Source: Escherichia coli (GTDB lineage: Bacteria; Pseudomonadota; Gammaproteobacteria; Enterobacterales; Enterobacteriaceae). From it: DNA of 64,000 nucleotides. Shown piece by piece: positions 1,834-1,966 of the stretch. The first letter of the stretch is position 1; every line of letters begins with the position of its first letter. The notes beneath the pieces are model-generated. The model ran no database searches, was not told the DNA's origin, and saw only the letters and a program-made list of their open reading frames with translations. The position numbers and the translations under genes are program-made. The stretch lies in assembly GCF_003334815.1 (NCBI RefSeq), contig NZ_QOWO01000005.1, one strand, 5' to 3'.

Positions 1834-1913
1834 CTTCCCTGCCGATTAGCCCCCCCCCCTTTCCTCTTTGTTTTCCGACCACATTCACCGGATAAATTTT
1901 ATTCTCCAGTGTT

Positions 1914-1966
1914 ATATACTATAGGGGGGTATGCATTGACATATAGAATACCCCCCTATAGTATAT
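1914..1966 (+). promoter_or_regulatory. Probable FrmR operator in the frmRAB promoter: 19-bp perfect inverted repeat with G6/C6 tracts
   Basis: tatactataggggggtat (1914..1932) and atacccccctatagtata (1948..1966) are exact reverse complements separated by 15 bp, 25 bp upstream of the frmR ATG. G/C-tract flanked by AT-rich inverted repeats is the known operator architecture for RcnR/CsoR-family repressors. Confidence 0.55.

Follow-up and report, generated by a model that had tools for sequence, protein, structure and literature searches.

The perfect inverted repeat upstream of frmR in Escherichia coli as a paired FrmR operator, and the nearby poly-C tract as a separate, slippage-prone feature

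Between yaiO and frmR, the stretch of E. coli DNA analysed here (64,000 nucleotides, hereafter the window) carries a long perfect inverted repeat and, further upstream, an uninterrupted run of ten C. The locus raises two questions: whether the repeat is the operator through which FrmR controls its own operon, and whether the C run has any part in that control. It is highly probable that the repeat is the operator of the frmRAB promoter, composed of two mirrored type I sites, and that the C run is a separate, slippage-prone feature with, most likely, no role in frmR control.

The inverted repeat and the frmRAB promoter

The window starts in the yaiP/yaiX-yaiO-frmR-frmA-frmB region, and the features of this region are listed in Table 1. 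A repeat search of the window returned arms reading ATATACTATAGGGGGGTAT on the left and ATACCCCCCTATAGTATAT on the right, each of 19 nt, with 100% complementarity and a 15-nt spacer. This reproduced the coordinates, the exact reverse complementarity and the 15-bp separation of the initial annotation, in which the quoted arm strings were each 18 nt long and lacked one end base. The repeat is the longest perfect one in the 64 kb at spacers of up to 60 nt (runners-up 15, 13 and 13 nt) and is far beyond what is expected by chance. The first of the runners-up, with 15-nt arms, lies at position 56501.

Each arm holds a copy of ATAC-N9-GTAT. These two copies are the only matches to the motif in the 64-kb window, and no FrmR-type site was found in it beyond them. 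They are mirror images of one another, with a centre-to-centre distance of 32 bp, or about three helical turns. Type I operators of the CsoR/RcnR (DUF156) family are defined by a G/C tract of 3-8 bp with AT-rich inverted half-sites on either side (Denby 2016, PMC5146963), and the G6/C6 tracts of the two arms, flanked by AT-rich inverted half-sites, have this form.

The gene downstream of the repeat encodes a DUF156-family repressor, FrmR, its ATG following the end of the right arm by 24 nt. The product also matched the NCBIfam models for RcnR and RicR, below their cut-offs. Translation from position 1991 gave a protein with Pro2, Cys35 and His60, and thus with both residues of the formaldehyde sensor, Pro2 and Cys35. 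A sigma-70 scan of positions 1600-2400 found a single promoter-like site, TTGACA-17 nt-TAGTAT, both hexamers of which are assigned as consensus matches only; transcription of frmR is predicted to start at about 1969-1971. The -35 lies between the two FrmR sites and the -10 inside the proximal one.

Table 1. Features of the yaiO-frmRAB region, in window coordinates
Feature	Position	Strand	Basis or remark
yaiO stop codon TGA	1801..1803	+	ORF 1030-1803; NCBIfam TIGR04390 (YaiO family OMP), 182 bits; yaiO in RefSeq genomes
GC-rich stem-loop after yaiO (GCCGCCC/GGGCGGC, 8-nt loop)	1812..1833	+	RNA fold; conserved in E. whittamii
C-rich, G-poor stretch (30 C, 9 G in 79 nt)	1834..1912	+	candidate rut-like region, by composition
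C10 homopolymer	1850..1859	+	length-polymorphic (C6-C11) among strains; ISEc20 insertion target in 87 genomes
AT-rich upstream edge of frmR promoter region	1890..1913	+	common to yaiO-, tauA- and fbpC-linked E. coli
Left arm	1914..1932	+	holds distal FrmR site ATAC-TATAGGGGG-GTAT (1916-1932); orthologous distal sites in closest relatives
-35 hexamer TTGACA	1936..1941	+	in spacer between arms; promoter scan, 10/12 matches, 17-nt spacing
Right arm	1948..1966	+	holds proximal FrmR site ATAC-CCCCCTATA-GTAT (1948-1964)
-10 hexamer TAGTAT	1959..1964	+	within proximal FrmR site; promoter scan
Shine-Dalgarno GAGGTG of frmR	1981..1986	+	read off sequence; gtgaggt in relatives
frmR, 91 aa (MPSTPEEKK...)	1991..2266	+	NCBIfam FrmR equivalog NF008464, full length, 189 bits (cut-off 133)
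frmA, S-(hydroxymethyl)glutathione dehydrogenase	2301..3410	+	TIGR02818, 745 bits
frmB, S-formylglutathione hydrolase	3504..4337	+	TIGR02821, 394 bits

The operator is already known from published work and is used in formaldehyde and methylglyoxal biosensors. The large inverted repeat of E. coli Pfrm was described as tandem type I FrmR sites of the CsoR/RcnR family, ATAC/GTAT around a 9-bp G/C-rich tract, and its centre (1940 in the window) was put at -29 from the predicted start (Denby 2016; Sci Rep 6:38879, PMC5146963, Fig. 6a); within the repeat, that DNA and the window are the same, with no difference. A PCR fragment of Pfrm was bound by FrmR with a Kd of ~220 nM, as against ~3600 nM for control promoter DNA, and formaldehyde, which forms a methylene bridge between Pro2 and Cys35, abolished the binding (PMC5146963). 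Introduction of ATAC-N9-GTAT into the constitutive promoter J23100 conferred FrmR-dependent repression (2024, PMC11127321). In the same work, repression was lost from a frmR promoter cut short immediately before the FrmR sites, so that the flanking DNA may take part, and sequence further upstream may have some role in frmR repression. The literature search, Denby 2016 included, turned up no footprinting of E. coli FrmR on Pfrm, whether by nuclease or by chemical probing. The assignment of the sites is supported by the sequence, by whole-fragment binding, by the site transplant (PMC11127321) and by the comparative evidence presented below. The proposal of an FrmR operator pair was thus borne out.

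The arrangement suggests how repression would work. A FrmR tetramer would sit on each site, so that the -10 and both sides of the -35 are covered. Because the sites flank the -35 and the proximal site includes the -10, FrmR tetramers would block RNA polymerase from the promoter. Formaldehyde cross-links Pro2 to Cys35 and takes FrmR off the DNA, and frmR, frmA and frmB are then transcribed. Since frmR is the first gene of the operon, the frmRAB circuit is one of negative autoregulation.

The RcnR operators of rcnR-rcnA resemble those of frm in being tandem type I sites with a G6 tract, AT-rich inverted half-sites and promoter overlap, and they are bound by one tetramer per site (Iwig and Chivers 2009, as cited in PMC5146963). 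The half-sites and spacing differ (TACT-G6-N-AGTA in rcn, ATAC-N9-GTAT in frm), as do the effectors, Ni/Co for rcn and formaldehyde for frm. A further difference is that one frm site exactly mirrors the other. The Salmonella frmRA operator likewise has a C6 tract in a T/A-rich inverted repeat and releases FrmR with formaldehyde, and the E. coli and Salmonella frm promoters have been aligned with their G/C tracts and T/A-rich repeats marked (Osman 2015, 2016). There, the flanking repeat is required, binding being lost when one flanking repeat was mutated, and two tetramers bind each operator (Osman 2015, 2016). This stoichiometry belongs to the Salmonella protein, 52% identical to E. coli FrmR, on a different operator in which a single G/C tract binds both tetramers; Osman et al. 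call the two operator-promoter sequences distinct.

A perfect repeat of this length could also act as a hairpin in RNA or DNA, that is as a terminator, attenuator or cruciform, and not as a set of protein-binding sites. As RNA the arms would form a 19-bp stem, and the surrounding 200-nt region was predicted to fold at -61.9 kcal/mol (z = -4.0). An Rfam scan of positions 1500-2500 returned no RNA family; there were weak, sub-threshold look-alikes to miRNA-precursor models, merely reflecting the hairpin. Against such a role, the stem is followed by no T run, and the predicted start of frmR is downstream of the repeat, so that the frmR mRNA would not contain it. The binding and transplant experiments (PMC5146963, PMC11127321), moreover, account for the sequence as protein-binding sites. 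Together with the pattern of conservation in distant homologues, given below, these observations make a hairpin function very unlikely.

Conservation of the operator in E. coli and in other genera

A 62-bp operator-promoter segment containing both arms was found as single-copy sequence in 5,365 of 5,426 complete E. coli genomes, with at least 95% identity in all of them; 3,416 genomes carried the majority allele exactly. The window and K-12 have the minority base, A, at position 1947. Most E. coli have C there, which lengthens the arms to 21 nt (...TATGC / GCATA...) and shortens the spacer to 11 nt. Over the 221 bp compared, the window was the same as K-12 MG1655 across the repeat and differed from it solely at position 1810.

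That position, just 5′ of the stem-loop at 1812-1833, is A in the window and C in MG1655 and in all other aligned genomes with the yaiO context. The 221-bp query had no exact match in the E. coli collection (best 99.5%). Either a private SNP or an error in sequencing would account for the A.

Long perfect arms are typical of mobile elements, and these arms might mark the ends of a small mobile element, as its terminal inverted repeats, or belong to a repeat family. This is extremely improbable, as the 5,365 genomes have a median of one copy and at most two, every copy stands upstream of frmR, and the window has no second copy.

Upstream of about position 1890 the E. coli genomes divide according to the neighbour of frmR, which is yaiO, tauA or fbpC. 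In an alignment of 10 genomes, homology with the tauA- and fbpC-context genomes started at about cggataaatttt, and the matches of partial coverage started at query positions 109-120. Approximately 1,135 of the 5,416 matching genomes shared the promoter-proximal part of the query only (coverage <80%). Since the contexts diverge upstream of ~1890, the conserved promoter was taken to have its edge at this position. The block formed by yaiP, yaiX and yaiO is accessory, and in the E. coli in which frmR adjoins tauA or fbpC the junction is at ~1890.

The cross-species comparison was made by a protein-guided scan with one genome per species, which gave 80 loci with a relative of FrmR at 52-100% identity. 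Of these, 68 had ATAC-N8-10-GTAT within 150 bp upstream of the frmR homologue. The motif occurred 89 times in 12 kb of upstream sequence and 15 times in the other 244 kb of the same loci, an enrichment of about 120-fold. The proximal site, ATACYCCCCTATAGTAT, is kept out to the frmR homologues of alpha- and beta-proteobacteria and is nearly unchanged as far as Brucella, Mesocricetibacter and others (ATACTCCCCTATAGTAT); its 3′ half, TATAGTAT, also serves as a -10-like element. The layout of two sites with TTGAC between them was found mainly in the closest relatives (at least 76% identity), in Escherichia, Edwardsiella, Providencia, Pantoea, Serratia, Aeromonas, Morganella, Erwinia, Deefgea and a Citrobacter/Klebsiella variant, and TTGAC was kept between the sites in all two-site relatives. 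A Paraburkholderia locus (L050, 60% identity) also had two matches, at a different spacing. Judged from these alignments, it is the proximal ATACYCCCCTATAGTAT site that appears to be shared widely, with the mirrored second site apparently limited to the closest relatives.

In the two-site relatives each pair of arms had between 0 and 4 mismatches over 17 nt, and the G run was often GTGGAG and not G6. A perfect repeat is thus not a conserved requirement, and nor is the G6/C6 tract. The same comparison bears on the hairpin discussed above, for mismatches between the arms are tolerated in relatives, and the distant frmR homologues keep one ATAC-N9-GTAT site, which is unable to form a long hairpin. 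Both points agree with the preferred reading of the arms as FrmR sites.

Concerted evolution of the two arms was also considered and found no support: the mean mismatch within a locus (1.67 per 17 nt) was about the same as the divergence of orthologous arms between species (1.8-2.3).

Near-identical frmR upstream regions were shared by Citrobacter, Klebsiella and Maribrevibacterium (L016, L019, L021) and, in a second set, by an Edwardsiella plasmid, Enterobacter and Morganella (L018, L020, L028). Such likeness across genera points to horizontally mobile frm modules.

The yaiO 3′ flank and the length-variable C tract

The C run was confirmed both in its extent of ten C and in its position 55 bp upstream of the left arm. 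It begins 47 nt past the yaiO stop and ends 77 nt upstream of the -35. The description of the run as unusual for E. coli held in part. It is the only homopolymer of at least 8 nt in the window, and its length is within the range of contingency-locus tracts (~7 nt or more). However, C10 or G10 arose in 8 of 100 dinucleotide-preserving shuffles, so that the run by itself is only mildly unusual.

Because the tract lies at about -111 to -120 from the predicted start of frmR, it would be outside the segment common to all frmR promoters, and by the alignments it is outside the conserved frmR promoter. It is missing in the tauA and fbpC contexts and, over all frmR-carrying genomes, in roughly a fifth. 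In E. whittamii, where yaiO adjoins frmR, the orthologous spot reads GCGCCCCAAACAC, with no long run, and the long C run is therefore specific to E. coli.

The tract varies in length within the species. Among the 10 aligned genomes were C10 (K-12), C9, C8, C7 and C6, and the interrupted forms CCCTACCCCC and GCCCCTC. For a survey of alleles, 60 records were taken at even spacing from the 3,583 that matched. Exact C7 was the modal allele (20/60), followed by C8 (14/60), exact C10 (11/60), C9 (5/60) and C11 (1/60), which places the C10 of K-12 near the top of the range. Of the other records, 5/60 had length 65 with one substitution, 1/60 had length 65 with two substitutions, 1/60 had C7 with one substitution and 2/60 gave partial matches only. 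The length alleles of C6 to C11 seen among complete E. coli genomes agree with the potential slipped-strand site put forward initially.

The annotation had also called for a check of tract length across strains, with read error as the explanation to be set aside. The sampled K-12 derivatives (MG1655, EMG2, C600 and JW5437-1) all had C10, and finished pathogen genomes of related serotypes had C8 in common; the differences are therefore largely heritable alleles, and the variation is not due to read error only. Single-base differences between very close strains in long-read assemblies could be homopolymer or assembly errors.

The long G or C homopolymers of contingency loci in Neisseria, Haemophilus and Campylobacter likewise differ in length among isolates, and by analogy the C tract could be a phase-variation switch, slippage in which alters expression of frmRAB or yaiO. 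Close haplotypes do differ by a single C (K-12 type C10 and SW071619 C9; M10 C7 and M8 C6), and the loss of repression from the truncated promoter described above (PMC11127321) leaves room for an effect of upstream DNA. Contingency-locus tracts, however, sit in reading frames or between the -35 and -10, where their length alters expression, and this tract is in neither, being placed after the yaiO stop. Moreover, the operator-promoter is kept in E. whittamii and in the ~1/5 of frmR-carrying genomes that do not have the tract, the K-12 derivatives sampled show a constant C10, and one-base differences in long-read assemblies may themselves be homopolymer errors. A switch is accordingly held to be very unlikely.

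The tract is also part of the C-rich, G-poor stretch that follows yaiO (1834-1912). This stretch might be a Rho utilisation (rut) region that ends yaiO transcription and insulates the frmR promoter, a proposal that is compatible with the operator explanation of the repeat. Its excess of C over G is in the top 0.1% among all 78-nt windows of the 64-kb sequence. Consistent with such a role, no intrinsic terminator was detected after yaiO or at the repeat, the stem-loop at 1812-1833 having no T run. Composition is nevertheless the entire evidence for a rut region, and a search of the literature for data on yaiO termination found nothing. Against it, tract length is not conserved, and the sequence at the orthologous spot in E. 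whittamii differs. A rut region is plausible but, in our judgement, less likely than not. A literature search on the yaiO-frmR C tract itself also found nothing relevant. The tract has no evident link to frmR control and most likely has no role in it, as stated at the outset for the preferred reading of the locus.

Insertion of ISEc20 into poly-C runs

An insertion sequence at the C tract came to light when the E. coli collection was compared with the window's first 4.4 kb. A junction query found ISEc20, an element of the IS110 family of 1,449 bp, inside the yaiO-frmR C tract of 87 complete E. coli genomes, including strain M217 (NZ_AP019189.1; L091:1856-3304) and many carbapenem-resistant isolates. 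In the M217-type site the left flank ends in GATTAGCCCCCC and the right flank begins with CCCCCCTTTCC; the C6 on each side equals C10 plus a 2-bp (CC) duplication.

Of the roughly 2,400 ISEc20 insertion sites in the E. coli collection, seven independent ones were examined, and all seven were C runs, consistent with a defined target of the IS110 type. The left flanks ended in CCCCC at four sites and in CCCCCC, TCCCC or CCCTC at the others, and the right flanks started with C6 to C8. At the second site, the empty allele predicted from a 2-bp duplication (C8) was found exactly in another genome. This second locus is polymorphic too, from C8 to C11, and the third site is also a variable C run. These data suggest that ISEc20 targets poly-C runs, possibly by means of a guide RNA. 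In the literature no description of target choice or preference by ISEc20 was found, although resources such as ISfinder may record one.

In IS110-family elements such as IS621, target choice is sequence-specific and RNA-guided. ISEc20 is annotated as IS110-like, is without terminal inverted repeats and has a 2-bp duplicated core. Its left end of 226 nt is non-coding and holds both CCCCC and GGGGGG. The minimum free energy fold of the left end has two long stem-loops (z = -2.75). This fold merely pairs CCCCC with GGGGGG, and so guide loops in the left end are not settled by it; when ISEc20 was scanned against Rfam, no bridge-RNA family matched. In having a structured non-coding left end and one kind of target sequence ISEc20 is like the IS621-type elements, and it is unlike them in that the target is a homopolymeric C run. 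A bridge RNA in ISEc20 is a candidate at most, for which the fold is only suggestive.

The first ~50-60 nt of ISEc20 also matched at 100% inside prophage genes annotated as Rz i-spanin in several E. coli genomes. Either a solo IS end or sequence common to both could explain these matches.

For the published assignment of the FrmR sites, the present analysis adds support at the scale of the E. coli population and across species. Long poly-C runs are rare in E. coli; whether these runs, and with them the C10 in front of frmR, are specified landing sites for ISEc20, presumably through a guide RNA in the 226-nt left end, is in our judgement evenly balanced. If they are, the C10 would be an IS attachment site that drifts in length by slippage and would not be part of frmR regulation. 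The poly-C specificity of ISEc20 is a small lead that could interest those who work on the programmable recombinases of the IS110 family.
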